Origin: Trichlorobacter lovleyi SZ
Lineage (GTDB): Bacteria > Desulfobacterota > Desulfuromonadia > Geobacterales > Pseudopelobacteraceae
Direction: 5' to 3'
NCBI RefSeq assembly: GCF_000020385.1
Contig: NC_010814.1
Span: 2,490,001-2,522,000 of the forward strand
DNA: 32,000 nt
Position numbers and translations under genes: made by a program. Below are positions 7,021 through 23,495 of this stretch, piece by piece. Under the pieces are notes generated by a model. That model saw nothing but the letters and a program-made list of their open reading frames with translations. It did not search any database and was not told the DNA's origin. Position 1 is the first letter of the stretch. Each line of letters starts with the position of its first letter.

Positions 7021-7043
7021 AGGTTGTGCTCCTTTAAGTACGA

Positions 7044-8471
7044 TCAATCCGTATCTGCCGCCAGTATCCGCAACCCAAAGGCGGTTGCAAGACTGCCACC
7101 TGCCAGAGCCAGTACCGCAAGCAATGGACTAAAGGGAACTAGTGCAGGCAGCCAGCGCAGCAGATCAATCACGGGAATGTAGGCCAGCAGGCAGACAACG
7201 ACTGCGCTAAAGGCGGTACTAAACGCTACGTCCCGAACAAGCGGCAGCAGCACCAATAGCAACCCGAACCAGCAGAGCAAGGCATTTGCATAGAACTCGC
7301 CGGAGGGGTCAAGCAGCGTCACCAGCGCCGGTATCAGACCACCGCCAATCATAAATAACAGGTTAGGGTTATGCAGTTGTTCCCTGATCCATTCGGCCTT
7401 AAAGCCATTGCTGGCTGCTGTCTGGTAGGCATGCCATAGCAGGGCAATGCGACTGACACTCCAGTCAAACATGGCTCGGTAGAAAAAGAGCGCCCAGGTA
7501 AACAACAGACCGATCAGCAGTGCGGCAGCAACACCCACGCCAAGCCCCAGTACCCAATGCTCTCCTTTCAGATTATCGCCTATCCAGACCAGCTCGAGAT
7601 TGCAGACTACATAAAAGTACAGCAGCCGTTTGTTACGCATGGTGTCTTTGGCAAATCCCAGGCCGGCAAGTCCGGCAAGAAACAGCACACCGTCTTCGGC
7701 AACCAGTTTAGGCAGGTGGGGGAACCATCCGGCTGTCAGCAGGTAGCGCAGCAGGGCATGACCCAGGGTGAGTACCCCGGCAATCAGACAGGTCAGCTGA
7801 AACCGGCTGGTAAGTGCACGGTACTGCTGTTGGGCCTCGGTGCTGGTGGGGCTACTGCCAAGCAGCCGTTGGAGAATGTTGGCAGCCTTTGAACGACTTT
7901 TTTCCATCTGGGCGTGCAGATACAACAATTCTGCATGATCAGGCTGCTGCGCCAGCCCCTCCAGAACCATCTGCCGGGCCTGGTCGTTTTTATCCATAAT
8001 CCAGAGAATACTAGCATGGTGCGCAAGATAGTCGATATCCAGCGGATCAAGGGAGAGCGCCTTAAGAATTGACGACTCTGCAGCGTTCAGGTCGTGGCGG
8101 TTATAGTGCGTTACTGATTGCAGATACCAGATTGTCGAGCAATCAGGATCAAGCTCAAGGGCTGCTTCTGCGGCAGCAAGGGCTTCACGGTACAGTTCCA
8201 GATGGTTTAAGAGGGATATCTGTACAGCACGCAGTGTGGTGCTGCCAGGATTGGCTGCCAGACCATGACGCAGGATGCTCTGCGCCTTGGCAAATTCTTC
8301 CCGCTGTACGGCTGCTTCAGCCGCGTAACTGAAAATCTGCGGCTCTGTTGCCGGGTCTGCAAGATGGGGTTGAGCCAGCTTCAGCAACTCTTCATAACGC
8401 TCCAGTTCGTACAGCAGCCGCAGCCTGTGCAGCAGGTTGTCGTCTCCATCTGTTATCTTTTCATGTTCCAT
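7044..8471 (-). CDS. TPR-headed polytopic membrane protein (paralog 1)
   Basis: N-terminal ~215 aa are TPR-like repeats and the C-terminal ~255 aa hold multiple hydrophobic helices. Its N-terminal motif is shared with the 8479-9870 ORF and the 11105-11281 ORF. Confidence 0.8.
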   Translation of the reverse strand: MEHEKITDGDDNLLHRLRLLYELERYEELLKLAQPHLADPATEPQIFSYAAEAAVQREEFAKAQSILRHGLAANPGSTTLRAVQISLLNHLELYREALAAAEAALELDPDCSTIWYLQSVTHYNRHDLNAAESSILKALSLDPLDIDYLAHHASILWIMDKNDQARQMVLEGLAQQPDHAELLYLHAQMEKSRSKAANILQRLLGSSPTSTEAQQQYRALTSRFQLTCLIAGVLTLGHALLRYLLTAGWFPHLPKLVAEDGVLFLAGLAGLGFAKDTMRNKRLLYFYVVCNLELVWIGDNLKGEHWVLGLGVGVAAALLIGLLFTWALFFYRAMFDWSVSRIALLWHAYQTAASNGFKAEWIREQLHNPNLLFMIGGGLIPALVTLLDPSGEFYANALLCWFGLLLVLLPLVRDVAFSTAFSAVVVCLLAYIPVIDLLRWLPALVPFSPLLAVLALAGGSLATAFGLRILAADTD

Positions 8472-8478
8472 TGGCTAC

Positions 8479-9870
8479 TCAATCATCCTGCTTCGCCCGT
8501 CTATATTGCCGCCAGGCCCGATAGAGGGCAAACAGGTACAGGATAAACAGCAGTAGTGGGCGCCTGTGGGGTTCCTGATGCCCGATTATTGAAAAGAAGA
8601 TCAGCGGCAGAAATGTCCAGGCAGCAAGCAAGAAGCTTGCAACCGCAGCCCTTTCAAATGATTGTATGCCACTATAGCGGTAGAGCAGTGGTGCGCTGGT
8701 CATGACAAACAGCAGATGTGGTGGCGGATTGTAATACATGCCAAACAAAAACAGGGTGGGCAACCCGGCCAGAGCCAGCATCGGCAGAACCAGGCGAGGC
8801 GGCAGCCATTCAATCAGCAGATCAGTAAAACGTCCCTGACGGATGGCAATTTGTGCCTGCTGCTTTTTGTTTTGCAGATCTTCAGCACTATCACTAAGCC
8901 AGGCACGAAATAAAACCAGTGCAACCAGTATAACCACCCCAAGCACTGCTCCCATCGGGATGGTGCCTGGCCCGAACGTACCGTTCCAGTAGCTCACAAG
9001 ACTGAACACCATGGTTGTAGTAATCAGGTGGCCACCCAGATGGTAATAGGTCGAACGGAGCATGAATAGGCCGGATGCCAGTGCCAGCGGATATGCTGCT
9101 TCAAACAGCCAGCTTGCAGCCGGATGGGGACGCAGAAAACCGGCCAGACCGGTTGCCAGGATCAGCAACAGCCAGATCGCCAGATCACGGGGGAGTTGCC
9201 GGGCAAACAGATTGTACAGCTCTTGCCTGTCAGTGTCTGTGGGGTCGAGGGCGAGTGCCTGCCTGAACAACTTCAGTTTGGCTCGTATCCCTCTTGACGT
9301 AACGGCCTTGACCGTCAGGGCATCGACATATCCGGGGTTATCGCGCAAGACCTGCTCTGCCAGCTCATTGGCTCGCAATGTGTTGTCACGCAGGCACTCA
9401 ATATGGGCCAGCAGGGTCAAGTGTCCGGGGTCATCCGGCAGCAGGGCCAGGGCTGCGTCTGCTGCCTCCTTTGCCTCGCTGTAGCGCTTAAGCTTCATCA
9501 GGCAAAAGGCCCGGTGATGGTGGGCATCCGGATTTTCCGGGTTTAGGGCCAGTGCCGCCTCTGCTTGTTCCAACGCCTTTTCGTACCTGCCGCAAAAGCC
9601 GAGAACCGAGGCATGGCAAAGTATCAGGTCTACGCTGTGCGGATGGCGTAACAACCCGCGTTCAACCAGATGAAGCGATTCTTCATGGCGCTTCAGTTGC
9701 TGCAGGGCGCTAACGCAGAACCGGTAGCCGGTTTCAGGTCCATCCAGACGGTCAAGCAACGGCATCAGCAGACGTAGAACTTCTTCGTAGCGCCCCAAAT
9801 CATGCAGCAGCCTCGCTTTTTCTACTTCAGAGGGCACATTATCAGCAATTCTGTGGGGTGTCGCATTCAT
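8479..9870 (-). CDS. TPR-headed polytopic membrane protein (paralog 2)
   Basis: Same architecture as 7044-8471: ~215 aa of TPR followed by multiple TM helices. There is only a 7-nt gap to the downstream gene. Confidence 0.8.
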   Translation of the reverse strand: MNATPHRIADNVPSEVEKARLLHDLGRYEEVLRLLMPLLDRLDGPETGYRFCVSALQQLKRHEESLHLVERGLLRHPHSVDLILCHASVLGFCGRYEKALEQAEAALALNPENPDAHHHRAFCLMKLKRYSEAKEAADAALALLPDDPGHLTLLAHIECLRDNTLRANELAEQVLRDNPGYVDALTVKAVTSRGIRAKLKLFRQALALDPTDTDRQELYNLFARQLPRDLAIWLLLILATGLAGFLRPHPAASWLFEAAYPLALASGLFMLRSTYYHLGGHLITTTMVFSLVSYWNGTFGPGTIPMGAVLGVVILVALVLFRAWLSDSAEDLQNKKQQAQIAIRQGRFTDLLIEWLPPRLVLPMLALAGLPTLFLFGMYYNPPPHLLFVMTSAPLLYRYSGIQSFERAAVASFLLAAWTFLPLIFFSIIGHQEPHRRPLLLFILYLFALYRAWRQYRRAKQDD

Positions 9871-10033
9871 GCAGGCAGAATACTCCTTATTATAAGGGAA
9901 CGAATGAACATACGCCTATCATGAGATTATTTCCACAGGGGTTAGACAAATAGACATCAGGTACAGATATTGATATCGAAAAAAGAAACTGTTTCTTGAC
10001 GATGAGGAATGAGACGGACAAACGGTCATTTTA

Positions 10034-11092
10034 CTACCGCTCCGGGTGAGACCCGCAGGAACAACCGCTGATAGCCCGGAAGAAGATCCAGGTCATCAGT
10101 GCGGTCATGGCACTTACTATCACGATATCAGGAATCGGCAAGCCAAATTGTCTCCCGGCATAATTGACGGCGCTCTGCAGCAGCCAGGCACTGAGCACTG
10201 CTGCCAGGGGCATGCCCATCCATCCGTCACCCCTCATGCGGCAGATGCAGGCACCGCAAAAACTGAGGGAAATCGTATAGGCCAGCGGGCCGATATACCA
10301 GAGTACTGCGGCAATGACGAGAAACATCCAGATGCTGCCGGCATACGAAGGAGCAATCAACGCAAAGTAGGGACGTAATGGCAGAAAGCAAAGTAGCAGC
10401 AGCAACAGTGCCAGTCCAAACGAATAACGCAAACGGACTCCAGCTGGCCGCAGGACACGCTGGTCTTGCGCCGCCTGCGGGGTTCCACAGGCGTAATCAC
10501 TGCGATAGCCTGCCAGAATCGGCCCTGCATCCGCAACGGCGTCAGTATCCAGTAGCCGTTCTTTACCTGACTCATTCAGGTAATCAACGATCCGGTCGAG
10601 CAGTTCATCACCGCTGCCCAACGTCTCTACCACGTTACTGATGCTACAAAGGTACCGTTCTATCCCATCGTAGTACAGGGTAAGGTCGTGACCGGTGGTC
10701 ACCCCGTTGGTGGTATGATGAGTTATCCAGATCCGCCCGATCTTGGAGTGGGAGAACAGTTGCGGAGGTGACTCATTGTGGCTGAAGAGCACGTCGTCAC
10801 CTGCTACGGCAACATGATAGCGATCAACTGTGCCGCGCATCCGCCTGGTGCGGAGAACATACATCATCACCGCCAGGGCAAGCCCGATACACAATAGCAG
10901 TAGCCCTGCCCAATTGGAGTGGGCAACGATGACATAGCCACCCATGAGCGCCGTACCGACGCCAACGCAGAAGAACAGCATCGCAAAAGCATCAGGGGTA
11001 CGCGGCGGCGTTTGCACGGTAAGGGTTAAGCCGGTGTCATCCTGCTGAACCAGCAACGAGTTTGTTTTATCGAATGTTTGAGTATCAGGCAT
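10034..11092 (-). CDS. polytopic membrane protein, in frame with the upstream 58-aa TPR-like stub across a TAG
   Basis: 352-aa ORF with an N-terminal TM pair, a soluble ~130-aa middle and a C-terminal TM bundle. There is no convincing SD before its ATG. It is in the same frame as 11105-11281. Confidence 0.6.
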   Translation of the reverse strand: MPDTQTFDKTNSLLVQQDDTGLTLTVQTPPRTPDAFAMLFFCVGVGTALMGGYVIVAHSNWAGLLLLCIGLALAVMMYVLRTRRMRGTVDRYHVAVAGDDVLFSHNESPPQLFSHSKIGRIWITHHTTNGVTTGHDLTLYYDGIERYLCSISNVVETLGSGDELLDRIVDYLNESGKERLLDTDAVADAGPILAGYRSDYACGTPQAAQDQRVLRPAGVRLRYSFGLALLLLLLCFLPLRPYFALIAPSYAGSIWMFLVIAAVLWYIGPLAYTISLSFCGACICRMRGDGWMGMPLAAVLSAWLLQSAVNYAGRQFGLPIPDIVIVSAMTALMTWIFFRAISGCSCGSHPER

Positions 11093-11104
11093 AGTATGAC
11101 GTTT

Positions 11105-11281
11105 CTATCTCTGCAGGGCAAAAACAGACAGGCGGTATCCTGCCTCCGGCTCATCCTGGCTAGCAATCTGGGGCAGCAGCAGTTTTAGCAGTTCTTCATT
11201 CCGTCCCAGTTCGAGCAACAATCGGGCTTTGTCAATATCGGAGTGCATGTCGTCAACAGTGCTGGTGATTGTGGTTTCCAT
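11105..11281 (-). CDS. 58-aa TPR-head stub paralogous to the N-termini of the two TPR-membrane proteins
   Basis: My translation is METTITSTVDDMHSDIDKARLLLELGRNEELLKLLLPQIASQDEPEAGYRLSVFALQR*. Compare VEKARLLHDLGRYEEVLRLLMPLLDRLDGPETGYRFCVSALQQ in the 463-aa protein. AGAAGGA lies upstream. The ORF is below the track's length cut-off. Confidence 0.5.
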   Translation of the reverse strand: METTITSTVDDMHSDIDKARLLLELGRNEELLKLLLPQIASQDEPEAGYRLSVFALQR

Positions 11282-11299
11282 AGGGTGAGCAATCCTTCT

Positions 11300-11854
11300 C
11301 TACAATGCCGGGCTGATGTTTTTTATGAGTGCAGCAGGAATTGTAACTCCAACCATAATCCCCCAGGCCAGATCCAACCAGAAAAAGGAGCCAACCTGCC
11401 CAAGGCGGATCAACCCCACCACCGGTACAACCAGCAGCTTGCCGAATAAGCTGATCTCACGGCTTTTGGTGGCCTGCCACAGGGAGTCGGCATCACCACC
11501 ACTGGGAAAGGCGCAGGCCCCCACCGCCCATGCCAGCCAGCACAGGAAAGGCCCGGCAATCTCTTCATGCTGTTTGGTCATTAATTCGGCCTGTAGTAAC
11601 AGCCCGACGCCGATGCCAAGCAATATAGCAGCCAGAGAGCAGACCACAAACGGCGCAACACTGACGATAATATGCTGCCAGGCTGTATCCGGCTGTTCAT
11701 GCAGCACATACCCGCGTGGATTACCAAGCCGCAGATAACAGACCTTATGCACCCGGACACCGGACAGACGGCAGGCCAGTGCGTGTGCGTATTCATGCAC
11801 CGGCACGCCAGGAATGGTCATTATGTTGAAAGAGAGAGAGACTAGTGTACCCAT
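11300..11854 (-). CDS. membrane protein with an HExxH zinc-peptidase motif (putative membrane zincin)
   Basis: HEYAH lies near the N-terminus (PVHEYAHALACR) and is followed by 3-4 hydrophobic helices. An AAGAGG SD is present, with a 12-nt gap to the upstream gene. Confidence 0.6.
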   Translation of the reverse strand: MGTLVSLSFNIMTIPGVPVHEYAHALACRLSGVRVHKVCYLRLGNPRGYVLHEQPDTAWQHIIVSVAPFVVCSLAAILLGIGVGLLLQAELMTKQHEEIAGPFLCWLAWAVGACAFPSGGDADSLWQATKSREISLFGKLLVVPVVGLIRLGQVGSFFWLDLAWGIMVGVTIPAALIKNISPAL

Positions 11855-11866
11855 GACAACCTCTTG

Positions 11867-12943
11867 TCAGTTTATCACTGCATGCCGTTGCTCAACGTAC
11901 CCCATAATACCTGCAGCAATACAGACCGTCAGTATAATTGGACCCGAGCTACTGAAAAATGGTAGCGGTATCGGCCAGAAAAACAAGCCAACATTATAGA
12001 GCACATGTAACATGGCAAGCCCAATTACCGCCCCTCCCCAGATAACCAACAGGTAGGTCATGGCCTCCAGGCCTGCCTTGCGTACAGTGCGAACCACCAT
12101 GAATGCCAATAGCGCAAAGCTTAGTATGACCAGGGCCATGCCAACCAACCCGTACCAGGAACCGATCACCGCAAAAGTGTACTCACCATTATTTCCCTGA
12201 CAGAGCAGTTGTTCAAAAGCCGGGGCCGTATCTATGCAGACCTGTGCCGCGCTTTCCTGAGTGGGCATGGATGGGGTGCTACCAATCATACCGCCGGTCT
12301 GCATGGACTGCAGTGCCAGGACGTGAGGAGAGCCCGGTTCACTATGGGTCAGTATCCGCTGCACATGATGCAGTCGATATGGTCGGGCAACAATTGCTGT
12401 TCCCAGAAAGACAACCGTACCAATCAGCAGAAACAGCCCGGCCAAGGGGCGACGGTACAGGCACAACAATACGCTAGCCAACAAGATGCCGACAAGGGCA
12501 AGCCCCAGATTGCCATGGCTGACAACCAGCCCAACTATCAAAAGCCCACCTAGTACCAGCATAACCTTGGCAGTCCAGCCGCATTGGCCGGCATTGCTGC
12601 AGAGTATACAGCCGCTTAAAAACAGAAGGCAGGCAAACAAATCACTGCCTGTGGCCACGGCATAGAGCTCTATGCTCGGAAACAGGCTTGGCAACATGGC
12701 TAAAGTAAATGCGGCAGAAACGAGAATCCAACGTATATTTGGCTGGGCTTGCAAGCGACTATACTTTATCGCACCCCCGACAAGTGCGACTGCAATCAGG
12801 GCAACAGCGTACACCAGTGGCGGTGCATTCTCCGGCAGGTCTGATGCATAGGCAAACGCCCTGCAGACAAACACAAACCCGGTCAATAGCATCAGTACAC
12901 TTAATCCAACATACCAGCCCGCCTGAGTTTTAAGATAGTTCAT
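11867..12943 (-). CDS. divergent SEDS-family (FtsW/RodA/SpoVE-like) polytopic membrane protein
   Basis: The C-terminal half aligns by eye to RodA. YTFAVIGSWYGLVGMALVIL matches DFIFAVLAEELGLVG, and IPLPFFSSSGPIILTVCIAAG matches VPLPLVSYGGSALIVLMAGFG. About 10 hydrophobic segments over 358 aa. SD is AGGGAGGG. Confidence 0.7.
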   Translation of the reverse strand: MNYLKTQAGWYVGLSVLMLLTGFVFVCRAFAYASDLPENAPPLVYAVALIAVALVGGAIKYSRLQAQPNIRWILVSAAFTLAMLPSLFPSIELYAVATGSDLFACLLFLSGCILCSNAGQCGWTAKVMLVLGGLLIVGLVVSHGNLGLALVGILLASVLLCLYRRPLAGLFLLIGTVVFLGTAIVARPYRLHHVQRILTHSEPGSPHVLALQSMQTGGMIGSTPSMPTQESAAQVCIDTAPAFEQLLCQGNNGEYTFAVIGSWYGLVGMALVILSFALLAFMVVRTVRKAGLEAMTYLLVIWGGAVIGLAMLHVLYNVGLFFWPIPLPFFSSSGPIILTVCIAAGIMGYVEQRHAVIN

Positions 12944-12979
12944 GATTTACCCTCCCTAATTATCTGGTCGTGCTTTACT

Positions 12980-14776
12980 TCATGTACCCAGCAGCACCGG
13001 GCATTCCTGCAGCAGTTCTCTGAAACCATCAATCATCCGGCGTGACCAGGCTGGTGATTCGATCATCCGGTGGTACTCATCTGAATTTTCACGCCTATTA
13101 TACTGCTGCCAGCGAATTTCACGCAGTCGTTCACTGCTTACGCTAACTGTTAGATGCCGCAGAAATGCTTCCAGCACGGCAGTGCATTTCTCAGAAGGGT
13201 CGTTATTATGTGGCCCTTGGTGCTGCATGAGATAAAACGGATCAGGATCAGCAACATCATCAGAAAGCCTGATTTCAAAGGTTGATAATGATTGGCCGCT
13301 TGCCCTGTCCCGGATGGAAAAAATATGGGAACCGTAGAACAGGCAACTGCTGGTGTAGCCACCCACGCAATGCTGCATCTTGCTGCCTTCATCCTTCAAA
13401 TGCCAGGGGGTGGTGAGCGGTACGACCATCAGGTCGTTATAGGGCCAGGGACTATCGATAAAAGAGGGCCAGTGTTCCCTATCATCGAGGCTGCCCTCTG
13501 CCAGTGATTCATCCAACACCTGTATCTGCCATTGATGCCAATGGCGAGACAAGGCGGTGATCCGCAGGATGGATACCTGCTGCAGGGCAGCTGTGGCATC
13601 GCTTGCCGGCATATCAACCTGTACAGCCCATTCGTGATAGGCTTTTTCAAAATCATGCAGGTTGCTGATGTCAGTCATAGTGATGTTGTACTTTTCCAGC
13701 CTCGCTGGTATGCGTTGGTAACCTTCCTTTACCAGATCGTTGAGACCGCTCTGCAGTATTGGTGAGCGTTTGCGGTTCCATTTCTCATCAAGGCTATCGT
13801 AGATCGGCAGCACCCATTCGTTAAAACACTCCCAGTCTTCAGCGGTTCTGGGCCAGAAGTCCGGCCTGATCAGATCAAGAATTTTGGGCAGCTTGTTAAG
13901 GTGACACAGCCACTGATTACCGATCAGATCAAGGTCTTTCTCAGTCAGGAATTTAGCTACGGTCTTTGAGCAGCGGAAGTAGTCGGCAACTGCGGTGGGA
14001 AGAGGATTACCCAGGTCAACCCCATGTTGCAGCCGCCGGGCCATATGCTCCGGTTCTTCAGCGCAAAAGGTACTGATTAACAGTGGGTAGGCCTGCAAGG
14101 CCTGTCTGCGATTACGGCAGACCTTCTCAAGGGGATGCAGCAGATAGTTGTAGTGTTGGAAGAAAAACAGTCCAGCTGTTGGATCAAGATGCACCAGCTG
14201 CAACCGTTCCTGATCCAGTGAAGCAGCAAAGGAAACCAGTCCCTCCTGAAATTGAGAGATGTACGGTTGCGACAAACTACGCACCGATGCGTCGGTCAAC
14301 AGGTACTGATGGTTCCAGCCTCTATCTGCATGGATGGTCTCTTTTACTATGTCTTCAGCAATCTCACTGCAGATTTGTTTAAAGTCACCGGCATCACCGG
14401 CACTGATCCAGCCGAACATCACGGCCAGGTGTGACAACACCTTCCTTGCTTGCTCAAACCTGGCTTCATCAAGCCGTTGACAGATCCGCCCCAGATCACA
14501 GTAACTGAGAAAAGAGCCGTTACTGCGGAAGAAGATTCCCCAGACAGCACCGGACTCAAGCTCCAGCCAGAGCATCCGGCCAGAGACACGGGTATCAAAA
14601 CAGATGCCGTCTTCACGCAGCTTGGTGGTGGGCAGGGCAAAAGCTTGGCGATAACCGGTACCGCTAGACAAGGTAATGGTACTTGCAGGTGCTGTTTGCG
14701 GTGCCTCCATGTGGCTGGCAGCTGTTATCGGAACGTCACTGCCCAGCAGGGCTTGTATTTCATCATGGGAGAGCAT
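12980..14776 (-). CDS. PcfJ-like domain protein
   Basis: The C-terminal motif LKDEGSKMQHCVGGYTSSCLFYGSHIFSIRD matches my recollection of the PcfJ-like family signature (EG..M.HCV..Y...G...I.SIR). The N-terminal ~430 aa are unassigned. Confidence 0.6.
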   Translation of the reverse strand: MLSHDEIQALLGSDVPITAASHMEAPQTAPASTITLSSGTGYRQAFALPTTKLREDGICFDTRVSGRMLWLELESGAVWGIFFRSNGSFLSYCDLGRICQRLDEARFEQARKVLSHLAVMFGWISAGDAGDFKQICSEIAEDIVKETIHADRGWNHQYLLTDASVRSLSQPYISQFQEGLVSFAASLDQERLQLVHLDPTAGLFFFQHYNYLLHPLEKVCRNRRQALQAYPLLISTFCAEEPEHMARRLQHGVDLGNPLPTAVADYFRCSKTVAKFLTEKDLDLIGNQWLCHLNKLPKILDLIRPDFWPRTAEDWECFNEWVLPIYDSLDEKWNRKRSPILQSGLNDLVKEGYQRIPARLEKYNITMTDISNLHDFEKAYHEWAVQVDMPASDATAALQQVSILRITALSRHWHQWQIQVLDESLAEGSLDDREHWPSFIDSPWPYNDLMVVPLTTPWHLKDEGSKMQHCVGGYTSSCLFYGSHIFSIRDRASGQSLSTFEIRLSDDVADPDPFYLMQHQGPHNNDPSEKCTAVLEAFLRHLTVSVSSERLREIRWQQYNRRENSDEYHRMIESPAWSRRMIDGFRELLQECPVLLGT

Positions 14777-14784
14777 TATAAAAA

Positions 14785-14815
14785 AACCTCCTCAGGTGGT
14801 GTACCTGAGGAGGTT
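14785..14815 (-). terminator. rho-independent terminator ending module B; its 3' arm contains the SD of the PcfJ-like gene
   Basis: Perfect 13-bp stem AACCTCCTCAGGT/ACCTGAGGAGGTT with a 5-nt loop. On the minus strand it is followed by T7, then ATA, then the ATG at 14776. Confidence 0.8.
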
Positions 14816-14916: not shown

Positions 14917-17442
14917 TTACTTCACCACAATCCGGTCAGCGGTTACGCTGCCCGTCCCAATGGTTAATACACCCTGCAGCGTAGTCACACCGCTGGTTGT
15001 CCTGCTGAAGTCAGCTTTATACCCTCCCTGCAGGTTCAGCTTCTTATTAATTACTGTACTTAGCGATAACGTATCTTCCAGCAGGTAAACCAATGTTGTA
15101 TCTGTTGTTGATGCTGCTGCATAGGCATCTGCAAGGCTACCATAACCATTACTGCCTATCTTGGCCTTGGGTGCCAGAGTAAAGGTGGCAGTAACTCCTT
15201 TTGCGCTATCCATAGCCACAGTACACGCATCCAACCCTAAACAGGCCCCACCCCACCCGCCAAAGGTGGACAGGGAGTCGGACATCTGCAAAAGGGTGAC
15301 GTTTTGTCCATAGGGGAAGGTGGTGGTACAGGTTCCACTGGTACAGGTAATACCCACTGGTTTTGTACCCAGCGGGTCGCTGGTGACGGTTCCCCCGCCG
15401 GTCCCAGCTACGGATACCGAAAGTACGGGTGGTAAAGGCAAACCGTTGATCAACACATCATCAATCCTCCAGCTGCCCATGGTTCCATAATAGTGAAAGC
15501 GTACCATCACATTGCTTTTACCTGCCGCAACTGACGTCATATTCAAGCTTATGCTCTCAGTGAAGCTCCCTTGCGTTTTCTTCAAAATATTTACCCATGG
15601 ACCTGCAGGGCCATTCTCGCTGATATCAACATCCGCGGTTGATGCATTTAACACGGACTTAAACGCCAAGTTAACAGAACCATAGTTACGAAGATCAAGA
15701 GCAGGTGTTCTGAGTTCAATATCAATAAAGGCATCTGGTTGGTCTCCATAGTTACTACCCCGTGCAAATCCGCCAGTACCACCTGTGTAGTTGGTTCCCA
15801 AAGAAGTACCAAACCACCACGTACCAGCAGGGTCAGAAATCCTTGTCCAACCTGTTGGTACACTGCTTGATTCAAATGCCTCGCTTAATGCGACAACAGA
15901 GGTAAATGTTGCCGTTATCGAAGTGTCTGACAGCATAGTAACGGTACAGGGACCAGTTCCAGTACACCCGCCTCCTGACCAACCGGTAAAGGTAGAGCCA
16001 TTATCAGCTGTGGCAGTCAACGTTACTACGTCTCCTGTTGCGTAACCATTTGTGCCTGTGGTGCCATTCCAGGCAAAAAGACCGCCATCTGAGGCGGTTA
16101 CAGTGCCTGTTCCTGCTCCAGTTTTAGAAACCGACAGGCTAAAATCCTTAGGATCGTTTGGCACAATACCGGTGATGATAGACTGGTTGCTCCCGCTCCA
16201 GAAATAGCTGCCAGTAGTAAAGCCGTTATATACGTCATAATAGGCATCATACCACCCGTCCCATCCAAGATTCAGATGCACCTTACTGGTAATGCCGTCG
16301 GTTTGATACCCATCAGCAACAAAGGCATGAGCACCGATGGTCGAGTTAACTGAACTAAACATCACCGGTCTTCCTGGTACTGCATCAAATTCATTCTTAA
16401 ACAGATCAAACCAGGTGGAGGACGTATAATCGTTCCTAATGTGCTTGGCTTGAGTGGGTTTATAATTAAAATACGTTGGAAGAGTATAAGGAGTAACGCC
16501 AGCACCAGAATCAGAACAGCCATAGTCCATATAAACCGCTATCCCAACATCTGACATAAGTTTGGCCACTGCATTGATTTGTGTGCTTGTACTGAAAGAA
16601 GAGAGGGCCGATGGCATATTGTTCCAGTCATACACACTTTGAGAAAAATCAGCCGATAATGTAGTGCCATTCCACGCATATGAGTTACTGCCAACTCCTT
16701 TGTCTGGCCAGCGCCAATAGCGGAGTATCTGGGACCAGGCAGTAGCCACACAGCCAGTCAAGGTATGGGCGCAGGTTCCAACGTCACCAGTACCTGCTGG
16801 GGTCAGATAATTATAATAGGGAGACTGCCCCCATGTGGTTGTGAGTAAAGGGGCTACTTGGGCAGTCGCATATACTATACTGGATGCTGCCTTGGAGGTT
16901 GTAGCTTCAGGGGTTGCAGGCTCAGCAGCGTAGAATTGCCATGACACGCCAACCGGAGTTTTTTCAGAAGCAATACTTTTGTTTGCGCCTACCTGTTCCT
17001 TTAGTTTTTGAATGCTTTTATGGGTGGAAAACATCTCAGGAAGGATCCATGATTCTACAGAATCAGGCTGCGTTACCCGTGATGGTTCAAAGCTGGACCT
17101 GTAAGAGAAAAGCACTACCGGCGTAAATTCATCATGATACGGAATAAGGAGGTAACCACTTGGTTTGACCGAGACATTATAGGCTATCGGTTCACCTTCA
17201 TGCTCTACAAGCTGAATCTTTGTGACGACCGGTTTTGGATCATTGGCCCACAGCCCAAATCTCTCAACTTGATGACGAAGAAAGTTTTGTGCCACTCGCC
17301 TCACCACCACTTCTGCAACAGGTGCAGCAATAACGTTGAGCGGGCAGACGAGTATCCCCAAAATCAGTACTAATGATATGCCATAAATTGTCTTTGTGGA
17401 CATGCTTTCCCCTGTCATGGCAAACATGTTGTGCTTAGTCAT
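14917..17442 (-). CDS. secreted C10-family (streptopain-like) cysteine peptidase with prodomain, B-repeat-like domains, a MAM/choice-of-anchor-J-like domain and a shared C-terminal tail
   Basis: Catalytic Cys context TGCVATAWSQILRYWRWP and His context GAHAFVADGY, with an upstream WGQSPYYNYLTP. The signal peptide starts more plausibly at Met14 (ATG at 17403). GWSGGGC/GGWGGAC repeat modules are present. Confidence 0.88.
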   Translation of the reverse strand: MTKHNMFAMTGESMSTKTIYGISLVLILGILVCPLNVIAAPVAEVVVRRVAQNFLRHQVERFGLWANDPKPVVTKIQLVEHEGEPIAYNVSVKPSGYLLIPYHDEFTPVVLFSYRSSFEPSRVTQPDSVESWILPEMFSTHKSIQKLKEQVGANKSIASEKTPVGVSWQFYAAEPATPEATTSKAASSIVYATAQVAPLLTTTWGQSPYYNYLTPAGTGDVGTCAHTLTGCVATAWSQILRYWRWPDKGVGSNSYAWNGTTLSADFSQSVYDWNNMPSALSSFSTSTQINAVAKLMSDVGIAVYMDYGCSDSGAGVTPYTLPTYFNYKPTQAKHIRNDYTSSTWFDLFKNEFDAVPGRPVMFSSVNSTIGAHAFVADGYQTDGITSKVHLNLGWDGWYDAYYDVYNGFTTGSYFWSGSNQSIITGIVPNDPKDFSLSVSKTGAGTGTVTASDGGLFAWNGTTGTNGYATGDVVTLTATADNGSTFTGWSGGGCTGTGPCTVTMLSDTSITATFTSVVALSEAFESSSVPTGWTRISDPAGTWWFGTSLGTNYTGGTGGFARGSNYGDQPDAFIDIELRTPALDLRNYGSVNLAFKSVLNASTADVDISENGPAGPWVNILKKTQGSFTESISLNMTSVAAGKSNVMVRFHYYGTMGSWRIDDVLINGLPLPPVLSVSVAGTGGGTVTSDPLGTKPVGITCTSGTCTTTFPYGQNVTLLQMSDSLSTFGGWGGACLGLDACTVAMDSAKGVTATFTLAPKAKIGSNGYGSLADAYAAASTTDTTLVYLLEDTLSLSTVINKKLNLQGGYKADFSRTTSGVTTLQGVLTIGTGSVTADRIVVK

Positions 17443-17486: not shown

Positions 17487-20400
17487 CTACTTCACTACAA
17501 TCCTATCTGCGGTCAGGCTTCCAGTCCCCACTGTCAGTATCCCTTGTAATACAGTGTAACCGTTTGTGCTTCTGGTGTAGTCGGCCATATACCCTCCTTG
17601 CAGTGTAAGCGGTTTATTGATGGTGCTATAAAGCGTCAAACTATCCTCCAGCAACATGACAACAGCATTATTACCTGCTGCTGCATAGGCGTCTGCAAAG
17701 TTAGCATAACCGGTATTGCCTATTTTCGCCTTGGGTGCGAGGTTGAAGGTAGCAGTCACCGTCTTATCAGCGGTCATGCTTAAAGCACAGGTCCCTGACA
17801 GATTTGTGCAGGCGCCACCCCAACCACCAAATGTGACAATACTGCTGGAACTGGCGGTAAGGGTGACGTTTGTTGCGTCATCAAACAATGCAGTGCAGGT
17901 AGCATTGGAGCAACTAATGCCAGCCGGTACACTGCTGACTGTCCCGATGCCATAAATGGTGGTGGTCAATGTTGGTATGGTAACAGCGGTAGTTGCCTGT
18001 ACCGGTGCAGAGACATTACCGGCAGCGTCTTTAGCCCAGACATTCAACACCTTAAACCCATTTGAACTGACCGCATACCCGGTAGGTTTGGTTGCCAGCC
18101 AACCGGCATCTCCTGCTGCTGGTGGCGTGCTTGTTTCTGTCACCATCCAACCAGTAATAGCAACGTTGTCGCTAGCGGTAAGAGTGGTAAACGGTATGGT
18201 CTTGGTCTTGACGGTTGCCGGTATCACAAAGGCACTGATAACTGGTGCTCCACTATCCACTCCAGTAACGGTAACCGGTACGGCTACCGATGGTGTATCA
18301 GGGTCATTGGATGCAACGGTCACGGTGGCAGTCTTGGTTACCAACGCTGTTGGGGTAATACTTACCCCAACCGTGCAGGAAAGACCTGCCTGAATGGTTG
18401 GAGTCATGCTGGCACAGGCATTGTCACCCGATGGAGCAACAGTAAAGGCGGCTGCGTCAGTACCAGACTTGGTGATGCCGGTTACATTAAGTGGTGCAGT
18501 ACCGGCATTGCGAATGGTCAGCAGAGCGGTTGATGTCTGTCCAATGTTGGCAGTGCCGCTCAGAGGGTTGGGGGTAACACTGATGTCCTGCAGGTTACCG
18601 CCCAGCACTACAGTGTAACTGTTGTTCAGTTCGTCACTTTCAGCAATGCTATTGGCTTCATCGACTGTCGCCACTACGGTGTAATACGGTTGTACTATGG
18701 CAGAGGCATCCCAGGTGTAGGTAAGATCAACACTGGCAAAGCGTGCCAGGGTTGGAACCGTCAGGTTGGTAATAACCGGACCGGTACTGCTGCCGTTATG
18801 CAGCGTCACGGTTGAGGCAGCACTGGCAGTACCGCCGATGTTTGCCACGGTAACAATCATGCTGTATTTGGTGGCAGCCAGTTTTTCCCAGGTAATGTTT
18901 CTGATGGAAAGATCCGGCTGGGCCAGAGAACTGCTGATCACGTTATTGGCCCGGTTCAAGGTGTCAATGGTGGCGTTGGGGTCGATCACAGCATAGACCG
19001 TATAGGGTGCTGCACCTGCCGGGATGGTCCAGGAAACAGATACGGTCTGCACTTCACCCGGTTTGAATGGCCCTGTTATGGTAGCCGTACCGATACTGTT
19101 GCCACCATTGGCAGGGTCTCCATTGTAGAAGGTAACCGGGATATTCTGGGCAACCTTGTCACCCAGGTTCTGGGCCACAGCGCTCAAGGTGACAGCAGTG
19201 CCAGGGGCCGGGTTACGTGGGTCAGAGATCAGGCTGCCAGCCTCAAGGGCCAGGTCATCCCCCATGGTGTGCTTTAACATATAGAGGTCAGTCAAGGCAC
19301 CGGTTGTCGGGGTGCCGTCTGGATTGATCAGCAGTTTGCGGTTGTAGACCGAGATAATGGTGTCAGTTCCCAGGAAGGCAATTGAGGGCCATTGTTCGGT
19401 CTCAGCATCAAAGGTTAACTGCTTGGGTTCACCCCAGACCTTGAAGACCGGATCATAGAACAGGCCAAACAGGTCCGAGGTGCTGTCTTCACTGTTGTCT
19501 GCATAGATCACCGCTACCTTGCCGTCTGTGGCCTGGGCCTGTTTGTAGTCTGCCAAGGTGCTGGAGTAGTTGTCTTCAGCACGGATGACCGTACGATTGG
19601 CAAAGTCAAAGTTAACCACACTGGAAAGCTCATTCCCCCGTACCCAGGTCATGACGACATTGTTGTTGCTGTCCAGGGCCAACTGGGGGTTGTCGTCTAT
19701 TACGCTGTCGGTTGTCAGGCGGGTCAGGCTGCCCCATGTTCCGCCGTTGTTGGTCAGGCGATACAGTTCAAGGTCTTCCAGGGTGCTGCTGTTGGCATCA
19801 GTGTCGAGGGAAAGCACAATATTGGCGGTTGTACCATCATACACGGCGCTGTAGCGCTTGATGGCGTTGGGGATGCTGGCCAGCAGTTGCGGCGTACTCC
19901 AGGCAGTGCCGTTAAAGGTGGCTGCGTACAGGCTGTTGGGTTTGGTTGCGCTACCCACAAGATCATTCTGGCTGTTGGCAATCCAGGTCAGCAGCAGGTT
20001 GTTTTTGTCCTTACCGGCAAGTTTCGGTGTACGCTCAAGGCTGCCGTTGTTGGTCAGGCGAACAGCAGTGCCCCAGGTTTTGGTGGTGGGATTGTAGACC
20101 GCAGCTGCTATCTCCATCAGCGGAACCACGTCCTCAAGCAGGGCTGTGTCCGGCAGGGTGGTTTTCATATCTTCCCAGGCAGTAACCATACTGCCATCGC
20201 TAAAGGTTAAGGAGCTCGGATTAAAGTCAGCGGTGCCGTTGTCAGCCACAGCCACCGGCGTACTCCAGGTGGAACCGTCAAAGCTTGAGTGCTGCAGCAT
20301 GGTACGGTTCATGAGAGTCCGAGCTGTGTTATCTTTTAACCAGAGCAGGTTGACGTTACTGCCGTTGGATGAAAGCGAGGCCGATGAAACCGGGAAGGTG

Positions 20401-23400
20401 GCAGACATGATCGGAGCAGAAGCGACACTGTAGCTCTGGGTCTCGGTGGCCACCTGTTTAACCGTATAGCTGGGAGATGACTTAAAGTCAGCAGGAACTG
20501 CGGCCTTCAGGTAGGTGCGGGGAATCTGCTCCAATAGTCCAGGAGTTGCTATTGTGTCTTCTCCGAGGCTACAACTGCCATATAGGCACCATGTACCCTT
20601 GCCAATCACATAGTTATATTTAAAATTGAACAGATAAGCTGTCGCTGTCAAATCGGCACTAAACTTAAGTTGATTGTCATTTGTAGGTAGTGTTAAGCCA
20701 AGATTTAACGTTCCTGTCAGCGTACCTTCCACACCGACGTTACCATCTACACCGACACCAAGAGTTCCAGATACGGCTGGATTAAGGTTAAGGCTTCCTT
20801 CAAAATCTTCTTGGGCAAGCCCCATTCCAAGAGCATTAAAACCGACATCTCCAGTGAAGTGAAATTTCCCCTTCAGGTAATAGGGGACAGGTATAGGCAC
20901 AACTGCAGGAATTACAAACATGCTTTGTTTCGTTTTTTCAATGGAGTAGTCCAAGGCAAAGCCAACGTCACCTTTAACATCCCATCCAGAGTCTGCTGTA
21001 GAGCAAGATTCAGGATTAAACTCGGTCTTTATATCAATAAAGGGGTAAAAAGAAGCACTTTGTGAACCAAAACCGATTTTCGGCATGCCTTTACCTTGAT
21101 ACTTTTTTACATAATCATCAAAGTTTCTCTTGAATTTTTTGAAATCACGATTTTTGGCATACTCTTTATCAAACAGGTTCCCTTGGGTTTGATCAATCCA
21201 GGCGACCCTATATTTACCTCCATCCGTGCTACTATATTCAAAGGCAACACTTGGCAGCAGCTTCAGTAAAAATGAATCGCCAAACAATATTGGTACAGCG
21301 TAGTTGGCAATACTCACATTAAGATTGGCAAGTGAAAGCTGTTTGTCGTTTTCGCCATAACTGTATTTGTTTGTATAAGAAAAAACGCTACCTTCATCAA
21401 CAAATTGCAGCATTGGTGGATCTGCGTTTGGGTTAAATCTTTTGGCCACCATGAAATCAGCATTTACTATCGGCGAGCTATTACCAGCAAAATCAACCGC
21501 TGCTACAGATAGTGTTGTACACGGGTCAAACTCTGTAGTTATATTGAATGTTTTACTAACTGGTGCGAATGAACCAAAGGTGTATTCATTGTAGGTTCCA
21601 CGCGGCGTTATAAATTTTATGTAGTTTGGAGTTTTTCCATCCCAATCCACATCAACAGTAAAGGTCACATCAACTGTTTGGTTGCCGATATATTCTTTAG
21701 GTAGAAAATAATACGGCTTACCGCTGGAATACTTTGAGGTAACCGAGGTCACCCGGAAACCAGTGGTGGCGGGAGTAAGGCTAATATCTTTCTGGGCAGA
21801 CTGCAGCGGCGCCAGTGTTACGTTAGCCCTGGCAGTCTCATAACCGCTTTTGGCGGCAACAAGGCTTAAACTGCCGCTGGTAAGGTTTTCCGCAAGGTAG
21901 TGTCCACCTGTATCGGTTGTATAGGGGCCACTGCCGCCAACCGTAATGCTTGCGCCGCTTACTGGCAGCTTGGTGGTTGCGTCTCGGACCACACCCCCCA
22001 CTGTTGCCGTGCCCACACCGCAGGAACTACCGGAAAGCGCAGCGGTCAGGGTGCCCTGATCGGTAACAACATTCAAGGTAGCGCTTTGGGTACCACAACT
22101 ATGGGGGGTAAAGTTGACCGAAATGTTGCAGCTTGATTTTGAGGCAAGAGTACTACCGGAGCAGCCGTCTCCTAGACTAAAATCCAAGGCATTAGGACCG
22201 GTAATGCTGGCGCCAGTGATGCTGGCAGCGGTGGCGAGGGTATTGCTGACGGTTAAGGTCTTTGATGTGGTGACCTCAATATATTGATTGGCAAAAACTT
22301 CTTTGCTTGGGAAAAGCACTACAGAACCCAGTTTTTTTACGCTACCGCCTCGAACAGGCCAAACTCCATTTTTATAAACTTTGTAATACGAATACACAAA
22401 AGATTCGTACCAAAAATTCATACTACTTGCAGAACCTCTAATTTCATCATCTAGCTGACTTACAAACTGAAATAAAGTTGGACTGCTCGATGACCAATAA
22501 AGATAATAACTCAAATCAAGATTAACGAAAGGGTGCGCATTGGGTAAAGAAGGAGCTTTTTGCTGTAAATCAATAATTGACTTTAGTTCGTTGCGATTAG
22601 GCAAACGCCAGTCGTTAAACCCAAGATAGTTTTGACTATTTATTTTTTTGATATAATCTAGGGCATCCTGCCATGATAATCGCTCTGACGAGGGACTGGC
22701 ATTTTTGGTCCAGACTAGATCTGTCAAACCATCAGTGATTGTATTGTTTCCATTATCAATAAAACGTGGATTAGGCCAAGCTTTACCTGCTTGGATTTCT
22801 CCATCTTGCCCCGTCCCCTGACAATTCACTTCATTTGCAACATCATCATAACATTTGGTCTGTCCCGTTTTATAAAGACTTATTGCAGACTTTTCAATAA
22901 TTGTACTATTACGAACTGGCCACGCATAAACATAATTGCTTTTGCCTGTAGAAGACATGTGTTCACTATAAACACTACCATAATAAGCATAATAACCGGA
23001 TCCTGATGATGACACATCTGTTGTTGATGTCCAAAAATAACGAGAATTAAAGTTTGTAAAAGGAATTGATATTGGTGATGCAGAATAACTATACTGAATG
23101 TTTATTAGGCTATCCAACTCAAGCACATTAGGAAGTCGCCAATCATTAAAGCCAAGATAGTTTTGACTATTAAGATACTTAACATAATTGAGAGCACCTA
23201 GCCAGGTTTGCCATACACCGGCAGGACTGGCATTTTTACTCCATTCTAGACCTGTAAGGTTGTCCGTTACCGTGCCATTACCATTATCAGTGAAACGTGG
23301 ATCTGGCCAGGCTTTACCTGCCTGTATTTCGCCATCCTGACCAGTGCCGGCGCAGGCCATTTCAGCGCCAGCAGTGTCATAGCATTTGGTCTGTCCGGTA

Positions 23401-23495
23401 GCCGGCAACTGGATAGTTGCAGCATAAGTAGATACACTGCATAAAATGCCACATATAAAAGTCACTAGAAACTTGGCAAACAATGATCTATTCAT
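17487..23495 (-). CDS. 2002-aa secreted multidomain surface protein
   Basis: The order is a signal peptide, then two DUF1566/Lcl-like repeats (GFNDWRLPN). Next come a choice-of-anchor-D-like domain, a carboxypeptidase-regulatory-like domain and ~400 aa I could not assign. Then follow degenerate Asp-box propeller-like repeats (SFDGSTW, NNGGTWGS), CARDB-like domains, a second choice-of-anchor-D-like domain, a B-repeat and the shared tail. Confidence 0.88.
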   Translation of the reverse strand: MNRSLFAKFLVTFICGILCSVSTYAATIQLPATGQTKCYDTAGAEMACAGTGQDGEIQAGKAWPDPRFTDNGNGTVTDNLTGLEWSKNASPAGVWQTWLGALNYVKYLNSQNYLGFNDWRLPNVLELDSLINIQYSYSASPISIPFTNFNSRYFWTSTTDVSSSGSGYYAYYGSVYSEHMSSTGKSNYVYAWPVRNSTIIEKSAISLYKTGQTKCYDDVANEVNCQGTGQDGEIQAGKAWPNPRFIDNGNNTITDGLTDLVWTKNASPSSERLSWQDALDYIKKINSQNYLGFNDWRLPNRNELKSIIDLQQKAPSLPNAHPFVNLDLSYYLYWSSSSPTLFQFVSQLDDEIRGSASSMNFWYESFVYSYYKVYKNGVWPVRGGSVKKLGSVVLFPSKEVFANQYIEVTTSKTLTVSNTLATAASITGASITGPNALDFSLGDGCSGSTLASKSSCNISVNFTPHSCGTQSATLNVVTDQGTLTAALSGSSCGVGTATVGGVVRDATTKLPVSGASITVGGSGPYTTDTGGHYLAENLTSGSLSLVAAKSGYETARANVTLAPLQSAQKDISLTPATTGFRVTSVTSKYSSGKPYYFLPKEYIGNQTVDVTFTVDVDWDGKTPNYIKFITPRGTYNEYTFGSFAPVSKTFNITTEFDPCTTLSVAAVDFAGNSSPIVNADFMVAKRFNPNADPPMLQFVDEGSVFSYTNKYSYGENDKQLSLANLNVSIANYAVPILFGDSFLLKLLPSVAFEYSSTDGGKYRVAWIDQTQGNLFDKEYAKNRDFKKFKRNFDDYVKKYQGKGMPKIGFGSQSASFYPFIDIKTEFNPESCSTADSGWDVKGDVGFALDYSIEKTKQSMFVIPAVVPIPVPYYLKGKFHFTGDVGFNALGMGLAQEDFEGSLNLNPAVSGTLGVGVDGNVGVEGTLTGTLNLGLTLPTNDNQLKFSADLTATAYLFNFKYNYVIGKGTWCLYGSCSLGEDTIATPGLLEQIPRTYLKAAVPADFKSSPSYTVKQVATETQSYSVASAPIMSATFPVSSASLSSNGSNVNLLWLKDNTARTLMNRTMLQHSSFDGSTWSTPVAVADNGTADFNPSSLTFSDGSMVTAWEDMKTTLPDTALLEDVVPLMEIAAAVYNPTTKTWGTAVRLTNNGSLERTPKLAGKDKNNLLLTWIANSQNDLVGSATKPNSLYAATFNGTAWSTPQLLASIPNAIKRYSAVYDGTTANIVLSLDTDANSSTLEDLELYRLTNNGGTWGSLTRLTTDSVIDDNPQLALDSNNNVVMTWVRGNELSSVVNFDFANRTVIRAEDNYSSTLADYKQAQATDGKVAVIYADNSEDSTSDLFGLFYDPVFKVWGEPKQLTFDAETEQWPSIAFLGTDTIISVYNRKLLINPDGTPTTGALTDLYMLKHTMGDDLALEAGSLISDPRNPAPGTAVTLSAVAQNLGDKVAQNIPVTFYNGDPANGGNSIGTATITGPFKPGEVQTVSVSWTIPAGAAPYTVYAVIDPNATIDTLNRANNVISSSLAQPDLSIRNITWEKLAATKYSMIVTVANIGGTASAASTVTLHNGSSTGPVITNLTVPTLARFASVDLTYTWDASAIVQPYYTVVATVDEANSIAESDELNNSYTVVLGGNLQDISVTPNPLSGTANIGQTSTALLTIRNAGTAPLNVTGITKSGTDAAAFTVAPSGDNACASMTPTIQAGLSCTVGVSITPTALVTKTATVTVASNDPDTPSVAVPVTVTGVDSGAPVISAFVIPATVKTKTIPFTTLTASDNVAITGWMVTETSTPPAAGDAGWLATKPTGYAVSSNGFKVLNVWAKDAAGNVSAPVQATTAVTIPTLTTTIYGIGTVSSVPAGISCSNATCTALFDDATNVTLTASSSSIVTFGGWGGACTNLSGTCALSMTADKTVTATFNLAPKAKIGNTGYANFADAYAAAGNNAVVMLLEDSLTLYSTINKPLTLQGGYMADYTRSTNGYTVLQGILTVGTGSLTADRIVVK

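Follow-up and report, generated by a model that had tools for sequence, protein, structure and literature searches.

The C-terminal domain (CTD) of the type IX secretion system (T9SS), described as Por_Secre_tail (PF18962/TIGR04183), is a folded beta-rich domain of ~80–90 aa that lies at the extreme C-terminus of proteins from Bacteroidota and has a basic chain end. It occurs on many unrelated Sec-dependent hydrolases and adhesins, including C10 peptidases, with several paralogues per genome. The same C-terminal slot and the same idea of surface retention are found in SLH domains and dockerins, and in the GlyGly-CTERM/rhombosortase retention of type II secretion cargo such as VesB. The modules that form the N-terminal cap and first rungs of beta-helices (PF20585, the 'putative pectate lyase-like adhesive domain'; the NosD family TIGR04247; and pectin methylesterase) are internal or N-terminal and belong to domains of many rungs. 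Here, we analyzed a stretch of 32,000 nucleotides from Trichlorobacter lovleyi SZ (contig NC_010814.1, positions 2,490,001 to 2,522,000; referred to as the window), in which three secreted proteins share a C-terminal tail of ~85 residues. We found that the tail family is a real and widespread module which is absent from Pfam and NCBIfam, is near-exclusively terminal, and has spread modularly on exported proteins. Its fold belongs to a known class, of which the tail is a variant that has an unusual, terminal role.

The three tail-bearing genes all lie on the minus strand. Gene A (14917–17442; 841 aa) is ACD96054.1/B3E567, named 'peptidase C10 streptopain' and encoded on the 3.9-Mb chromosome of T. 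lovleyi SZ (formerly Geobacter lovleyi); gene B (17487–23495) encodes 2002 aa; and gene C (23579–26116; 845 aa) encodes another C10 peptidase with a tail, a paralogue of A. Judged by eye, all three proteins have Sec-type signal peptides at their N-termini. The order in protein A is signal peptide, Peptidase_C10, B-repeat, MAM-like region, B-repeat and tail, and that in protein B is signal peptide, two Lcl_C domains, an Ig-like/CarboxypepD_reg region, two CARDB domains, choice-of-anchor D/ASH, B-repeat and tail. An initial annotation, made from the letters of the window, had proposed that the three C-termini are related. This was correct, and the tails start with LAPKAKIG at exactly the places given there: 14917–15177 for A (aa 756–841 plus the stop codon, covering positions 1–86 of the family profile and ending at the stop), 17487–17741 for B (aa 1919–2002 plus the stop codon), and 23579–23854 for C (aa 755–845 plus the stop codon). 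Their pairwise identity was 55–67% (tblastn, E from 1e-24 to 1e-35), and they matched no other stretch within the window in the tblastn search. Tails A and B end in ADRIVVK, as had also been stated. Protein C ends in DRVIILPSLLQTN rather than in DRIVVK because its stop codon is displaced: ctc stands at the site of A's aag-taa, so that 7 extra residues (LPSLLQTN) are added and the terminal Lys is lost (23579–23605, minus strand). Protein C is thereby a possible natural test of whether a free basic C-terminus matters.

Proteins A and C are paralogues over their full length (69% identity over 825 aa), so the sharing of a tail between different passengers is documented independently only by the comparison of A/C with B. 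The module shared by A and B spans 171 aa with 56% identity (A 672–841 vs B 1841–2002), and consists of a Cys-containing B-repeat followed by the tail. The repeats before the tails, also on the minus strand, are located at 15178–15429 in A (aa 672–755, containing TFGGWGGACLGLDACTV and, further on, VTATFT), 17742–17975 in B (aa 1841–1918), and 23855–24106 in C (aa 671–754). Matches to PF18998 (Flg_new_2, Pfam) were found in A and C, with two stretches of C matched, and the pre-tail repeats of A, B and C all align with PF18998-matched copies (41% identity for A 444–513 vs B 1849–1917). By such a match, or by homology to a matched copy, the module before the tail is classified as a divergent InlB B-repeat. 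The claim that a Cys-containing B-repeat precedes each tail was thus confirmed for A, B and C, and it extends to the family, where the repeat was present in 76 of the 84 members having enough upstream sequence. This repeat carries two Cys, which probably form a disulfide. As for the anchor classes that had been named for the upstream domains, choice-of-anchor D was found in protein B (78.6 bits vs an NCBIfam cut-off of 45), and choice-of-anchor J was undetected in A and C at E ≤ 0.01.

We compared a four-sequence tail profile with 1.84 billion representative proteins, clustered at 50% identity. The profile matched 1,727 clusters at E ≤ 1e-3 and 220 at E ≤ 1e-10. Positions and end residues were counted for the best 150 of the 1,727 matched clusters. 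Among them, 131 matches were full-length, in proteins of 80–2,900 aa; 85 of the 131 reached the last residue of the protein and 101 ended no more than 10 residues from it. The final residue of the tail was K or R in 74 of 93 cases. The family consensus is ApkAkIG.tgY.SL..AY.AA...tI.lL.e.L.....K.itL.GGY.aDYs..sG.pT.L.G.LtIg.GsLtvD.l.v[KR]-COOH, in which ten positions are near-invariant (three invariant and seven at ≥90%) across 55 sequences with 26–68% identity to tail A. The APKA[KM]IG junction at the start of the tail is highly conserved in the family alignment.

Copies that do not end the protein belong to two types. Giant proteins of 2,000–7,000 aa each contain at least 7–19 partial matches, which cover only profile positions ~5–52. 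Full-length internal copies are few; they were found in P0019 and P0025 (with Big_2-like domains after them), in P0225, and in P0109 (three copies with a period of ~366 aa), and tandem tails occur in P0106. The terminal basic residue is not kept in the full-length internal copies. A strictly C-terminal place, which had been considered for the tail, is therefore true of the 85 proteins counted above and fails for P0019, P0025, P0109 and P0225.

The tail reached no family in Pfam (2025 copy) or NCBIfam (June 2026), including their beta-helix models, when whole proteins were searched at E ≤ 0.01 and isolated tails at E ≤ 10; a CofB_C match (E = 0.016) was dismissed as chance. A sequence search of the PDB with tail profile A1 gave no matches. 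With profile A2, the best hit was a quinolinate phosphoribosyltransferase (E = 6.7e-5, per-domain 0.024), which is a spurious match of an Ala-rich segment and 'GGY' to an unrelated enzyme. No description of the module was found in the literature searched, and there was no tail match in the plasmid sequences. Locus scans of genomes and metagenomes yielded only 7 and 3 loci, respectively, because the back-translated patterns are very specific.

The structure of the tail was modelled by AlphaFold2 from the 55-sequence alignment, with a predicted local distance difference test score (pLDDT) of 95.8 and a predicted template modelling score (pTM) of 0.84. The model consists of two short strands, a helix (residues 15–21), and strands fitting about two solenoid turns; the chain stops on a strand at residue 86, and the last rung has no C-terminal cap. 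The tail is thus predicted to be an autonomously folding domain of ~85 residues, built of a strand pair, a cap helix and about two right-handed beta-solenoid turns. The model of the B-repeat plus tail (170 aa) was also confident (pLDDT 95.5, pTM 0.83), so the two are predicted to form a fixed unit.

The origin of this fold is indicated by the giant, adhesin-like proteins. Their beta-helix starts aligned with the tails with a probability of 98.4% (hhalign, E = 4.5e-15, 49 columns, tail residues 2–52), and the tail profile matched them with per-domain E-values down to 1e-9. The matched segments, of the form 'AKIGdtyYATLadAiaAAqdGDTItLLaD...I.K.ItIDGNG', run on as long beta-helices, and one of them matches PF20585 Pectate_lyase_5 (E = 1.3e-6) and the NosD N-terminus (TIGR04247). 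The tail has the same order as these beta-helix starts, namely a strand, the 'GxxY.tL.dAy.aA' helix, the 'tI.Ll.d' strand and the 'K.itl.G' strand. However, it stops at about two turns and is placed at the C-terminus, and the motif of its C-terminal half, GGY.aDY...G.LtIg.GsLtvD..v[KR], is family-specific and absent from the long beta-helices. By this homology, the tail derives in shortened form from the cap and first rung, and it has a conserved second half of its own; as read from these alignments, the tail is a cut-down start of a pectate-lyase-type (Pectate_lyase_5/NosD-type) beta-helix. The suggestion of a truncated beta-helix cap in the initial annotation was therefore right with regard to structure. 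Its concern that the profile might hit internal positions of beta-helix proteins also turned out to have some substance, although such hits were limited to the first ~50 profile positions.

Structural comparison by Foldseek gave non-significant hits. In the PDB, the tail was closest in shape to the first ~80 residues of pectin methylesterases (TMq 0.45–0.51; 2ntb_A with a root-mean-square deviation of 2.9 Å over 63 columns) and a PL6 lyase, and in BFVD to tailspike-like viral proteins (TMq 0.5–0.65), all with E > 1. The pectinesterase N-terminus 1xg2_A (residues 7–80), found in the PDB with profile A2 at E = 0.56, is a weak hint that is consistent with beta-helix ancestry. Matches of the 170-aa cassette to Gram-positive pilins in the PDB reflect the Ig-like B-repeat only.

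Alternatively, the tails could be remnants of longer beta-helix domains which were cut by a frameshift, a premature stop or an assembly break. Many related loci start or stop within a tail gene at the edge of a contig, some tails form open reading frames (ORFs) of their own with 99–137 aa right after another ORF, and the stop codon of gene C is shifted. However, the same profile position is the stop in 85 independent cluster representatives, the C-terminal half has the conserved motif that long beta-helices lack, the 86 residues fold confidently as a compact unit in the AlphaFold2 model, and the window comes from a finished genome. A truncation artefact is thus effectively refuted.

Irregular gene ends were observed at several loci. 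Many contigs of metagenome-assembled genomes (MAGs) break inside tail-bearing genes (L003–L006, L009, L015), probably because the passengers are repetitive. At L010 (8332–10300), the tail is a separate ORF of 99 aa that starts 118 bp past an ORF of 516 aa, and at the P0154 locus the B-repeat and tail are encoded by an ORF of their own (137 aa), which abuts that of an S8 peptidase. Their arrangement suggests frameshifts or split genes.

The comparison with the T9SS CTD shows both similarity and difference. The tail resembles it as a beta-rich C-terminal domain of ~85 aa, with a basic end, on varied Sec passengers including C10 peptidases. However, no match to PF18962/TIGR04183 was found for whole proteins at E ≤ 0.01 or isolated tails at E ≤ 10, and the model is a helix-capped solenoid, whereas the T9SS CTD is an Ig-like beta-sandwich. 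The tail family also has internal copies, unlike the T9SS CTD, and no PorU/PorV-like partner was found at the loci examined. The hosts differ as well: the tail is found in Trichlorobacter, Geobacter, Pelobacter, Desulfuromonadaceae and Nitrospirota, and not in Bacteroidota as for the T9SS CTD.

Other C-terminal signals were also considered. Neither the tails of A, B and C nor the family alignment showed a motif of the PEP-CTERM, LPXTG, GlyGly-CTERM or MYXO-CTERM type, a hydrophobic stretch of ≥15 residues, or a transmembrane segment; the tail is instead an amphipathic, folded beta domain. There was no beta-barrel or autotransporter signal in the tails either; A and B end in K and C ends in N, and the length is ~85 aa vs at least 250 aa for a barrel. 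This agrees with the first reading of the sequence, in which PEP-CTERM, LPXTG and T9SS-CTD features and a terminal aromatic residue were reported to be lacking. With SLH domains, dockerins and GlyGly-CTERM, the tail shares the slot but no kinship in sequence or fold, and it is without a transmembrane helix or a sortase-type motif.

Most of the full-length tail members have an obvious signal peptide at the N-terminus. Related tails came from MAGs of Geobacter, Pelobacter, Geobacteraceae, Geobacterales and Desulfuromonadaceae, and also from Trichlorobacter sp., one Nitrospirae MAG and one Dissulfurispiraceae MAG. The passengers are diverse. They include peptidases (C10, M6, S8 and C39-like), Lcl_C (lectin-like), He_PIG and CarboxypepD_reg domains, propellers of the NHL, Kelch, RCC1 and BNR types, a full beta-helix, a cohesin-containing protein, and proteins of ~160 aa that consist of a signal peptide, a YD repeat and the tail.

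We further examined the homologues of protein A's passenger. The tail was present in 20 of 119, and it was exactly C-terminal in 19 of these 20. Many of the tail-less C10 homologues end in a Gly-rich 'GGGGCF[IL]..' sequence, an SLH domain (P0231), a dockerin-like end (P0228/P0230) or a short hydrophobic tail. Homologous C10 passengers thus carry other ends at the same place, and the tail fills a slot that evolution gives to anchoring or sorting modules. The initial proposal of a new sorting or anchoring module is plausible in this light: the module is recurrent, unrecognised by Pfam and NCBIfam, C-terminal, carried by many passengers, and placed in the anchor slot. The matches in giant beta-helix proteins are partial and the co-occurrence with a secretion cluster (see below) covers part of the loci; therefore its function in sorting or anchoring is what we infer.

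Some of these ends and passengers deserve a description of their own. The GGGGCF[IL]xxL.. end, which has a Gly/Ser run before it and lies 5–8 residues from the stop, occurs in many C10 peptidases from metagenomes of Desulfobacterota type (P0224, P0234, P0236, P0238, P0240, P0242, P0248, P0255, P0256, P0259, P0265, P0271, P0275, P0289, P0293 and P0299). It has no NCBIfam name, and it looks like a distinct short C-terminal signal for sorting or modification. In P0057 (1191 aa), an RCC1 propeller is combined with a cohesin domain (E = 1.2e-12), a B-repeat and the tail. Taken with the dockerin-like ends on C10 homologues, this cohesin domain indicates that cohesin-dockerin-type assemblies may exist in the same communities. 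A subfamily of ~145–160 aa (P0160, P0163, P0165, P0167, P0170, P0172) has only a signal peptide, one YD/RHS repeat and a variant of the tail, 'sIQAAYnaA.nGdtIkCrdl.FtENLtiNRnItvtLeGGYnCdFt...', with two extra Cys.

The genes of the window are organized together with regulators. A zf-HC2 anti-sigma factor gene (26146–26838, minus strand) is located 29 bp upstream of gene C, and directly upstream of it is a gene for a sigma factor of the extracytoplasmic function (ECF) type (26835–27722, minus strand). A strong terminator-like hairpin on the same strand (14785–14815), with a 13-bp stem and a T-run, lies ~100 bp past the stop codon of gene A. With the sigma and anti-sigma genes upstream on the same strand and the hairpin after A, the five genes look like one transcription unit. 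The sigma factor, the anti-sigma factor, C, B and A probably form a single operon, which would place the secreted trio under dedicated envelope-signal control.

Tail genes form arrays at other loci as well, which agrees with the multiple copies per genome that the initial annotation had put forward for checking: three are present in the window, four in L017/L018 (C10, a 948-aa protein, C39-like and M6) and four in L019, and each tail in these arrays ends at a stop codon. Tails on unrelated passengers in L017 are 75–82% identical, and those of different lineages are at most 50% identical; the three tails of the window group together and with L013/L014. This pattern indicates shuffling of the cassette within genomes, co-evolution with a lineage-specific partner, or both.

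The only recurrent neighbour of the tail genes was a secretin/PilMNO/prepilin cluster, which was found in two lineages with different gene orders. In L017/L018/L020, genes for PilM-like, PilN, PilO-like and PilP-like proteins, a tetratricopeptide repeat (TPR)-secretin, two GspG/pilin-like prepilin-type proteins and a TIG protein are followed by an array of at least four tail-bearing peptidases (C10, M6, C39-like; L017 2897–21493, L020 1049–16743, L019 1083–12432). The best PDB relatives of this TPR-secretin are GspD and then PilQ. In the P0216 lineage (46% identical to P0206), a C10-tail gene is directly upstream of T2SSF/PilM/PilN/PilO/x/TPR-secretin. Another tail gene has GspA/GspB-like genes at a distance of 7 kb. 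The initial annotation had put forward co-distribution with a particular membrane enzyme as a check. No sortase or membrane enzyme recurred beside the tail genes among the loci examined, and the one recurrent candidate is the secretin cluster of the two lineages, most loci having nothing comparable. Two other candidates were rejected: an AAA match in L004/5/9/15 proved to be FtsH, and an orphan T2SSE/MshEN ATPase near the L007 tail gene was not part of a secretion cluster.

Based on this neighbourhood, the cassette may be an export or sorting tag, that is, a folded unit which a dedicated machine of the cell envelope would recognise; the most plausible candidate is the TPR-secretin/PilMNO/prepilin (type II secretion-like) system. 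It would then be a transferable cargo signal, possibly cleaved at the F-x-[LA]-A-P-K-A junction, and a functional analogue of the T9SS CTD, which C10 peptidases carry in Bacteroidota. The extreme C-terminal place without trailing residues, the conserved basic last residue and its loss in internal copies, the many paralogues on unrelated hydrolases including C10 peptidases, the tail genes directly beside secretin-type clusters and near GspA/GspB-like genes, and the strongly conserved APKA[KM]IG junction would all fit such a tag. However, most loci, the window included, have no secretion cluster near the tail genes, and the few full-length internal copies followed by further Ig-like domains (P0019, P0025, P0225, P0109) weigh against the idea of a sorting signal. 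The conservation of the junction can be explained by the ancestral fold, since 'AKIG' is the first strand of the ancestral beta-helix and is also kept internally in the giant proteins, and so need not be a cleavage site. Moreover, type II secretion is not known to use a transferable linear or domain tag. We consider an export or sorting tag unlikely. A more specific form, in which a secretin system of the type II secretion/type IV pilus class (TPR-secretin, PilM/N/O-like proteins and GspG-like prepilins) in Desulfuromonadia and Nitrospirota reads the cassette as a transferable tag that marks cargo for export or surface retention, appears distinctly improbable.

As a different explanation, the tail could be a structural terminator or assembly element, in which the mini-solenoid only caps or stabilises long multi-domain chains, or its uncapped last rung joins tail-bearing proteins to one another, end to end or as oligomers, without an external receptor, so that enzymes encoded together would co-assemble. 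The last strand of the model is left uncapped, sets of 3–4 tail genes are apparently transcribed together, tails are in tandem in P0106 and repeated at ~366 aa in P0109, and the cohesin-domain protein P0057 points to scaffold-type assemblies in these organisms. However, many loci have a single tail gene, and the conservation of ten (near-)invariant positions across 55 sequences, and of a terminal K/R, would be unexpected for a passive cap. We regard an assembly element as rather unlikely, if worth considering.

Our preferred explanation, which we hold tentatively as a good possibility, is that the B-repeat plus tail cassette binds non-covalently and serves exported enzymes as a common handle for docking or retention. 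The cassette has apparently spread by shuffling to the C-termini of a wide range of unrelated proteins that carry Sec signals, in Desulfuromonadia and some Nitrospirota. In it, the tail is predicted to be rigidly coupled to the preceding two-Cys InlB B-repeat, and it ends abruptly past its last strand, usually with a basic free C-terminus. The proteins would fold in the periplasm and then leave the cell, probably via a secretin system of the type II secretion/type IV pilus class. Outside, the cassette would dock the different enzymes to one common extracellular partner, which may be a polysaccharide of the cell envelope or matrix, or a partner protein. The two proteases and the giant adhesin-like protein of the window, whose genes are apparently transcribed together, would in this way be kept at one place. 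In this scheme, the route of export, the function in binding and the ligand are inferred.

We favour a docking handle because of the 'adhesive' beta-helix ancestry, the exchange with SLH, dockerin and other anchors, the co-regulated enzyme arrays, and one capsule-locus case; the near-invariable C-terminal place on exported proteins also speaks for a shared docking or retention handle. In the capsule-locus case, the tail-bearing C10 gene of P0212 (71% identical to P0216) lies inside a capsule/exopolysaccharide locus (L021 156–16034) with Wzi, Wzy_C, glycosyltransferases, a Bac_transf enzyme, a flippase, a pyruvyl transferase and Capsule_synth. Several observations weigh against such a handle. 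The capsule context is a single case, and most loci examined (the window, L003, L004/5/9/15, L010, L013, L016, L023 and L024) showed no conserved neighbour of the secretion, polysaccharide or any other type. A two-turn solenoid offers a small binding surface compared with real pectate-lyase grooves, and Foldseek gave no significant neighbour for the tail (PDB, BFVD) or for the 170-aa cassette (PDB). In addition, the near-absolute stop after the last strand and the basic end are not obviously needed by a simple binding domain, and the abrupt basic end would be just as compatible with a recognition signal or with a need for capping.

The remaining parts of the window were also inspected. The flanks (3219–3872, 5644–14776 and 30419–31204) contain a serine resolvase and a DDE (DUF4372) transposase which enclose the cluster, and the L017 array also harbours an insertion of this transposase type (DDE/DUF4372). 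Downstream in the window are genes for a PcfJ-like protein, a very distant SEDS/FtsW-like membrane protein, a DUF3267 'zincin' membrane protein, a 352-aa protein, two TPR proteins and one TPR-AAA ATPase. None of these downstream genes was found near tails at other loci. The region could represent a mobile island, or else a system that is unrelated.

Regardless of its function, the tail has the merits of a domain model, namely a family of ~1,700 clusters, a confident fold and a near-exclusive C-terminal place. A Pfam/NCBIfam model is deserved because these regions are now left unannotated. If the docking handle is true, it would show by what means sets of proteases and adhesin-like proteins are kept together outside the cell in Geobacter-type bacteria, a group of importance for metal reduction, dechlorination and sediments, and it would allow a one-step prediction of the secreted and surface proteome in these lineages. 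If the cassette is instead a cargo tag, it would bear on the long-standing question of how type II secretion-like systems choose their substrates, and it would be the first conserved modular C-terminal signal for a secretin-class machine, analogous to the T9SS CTD.

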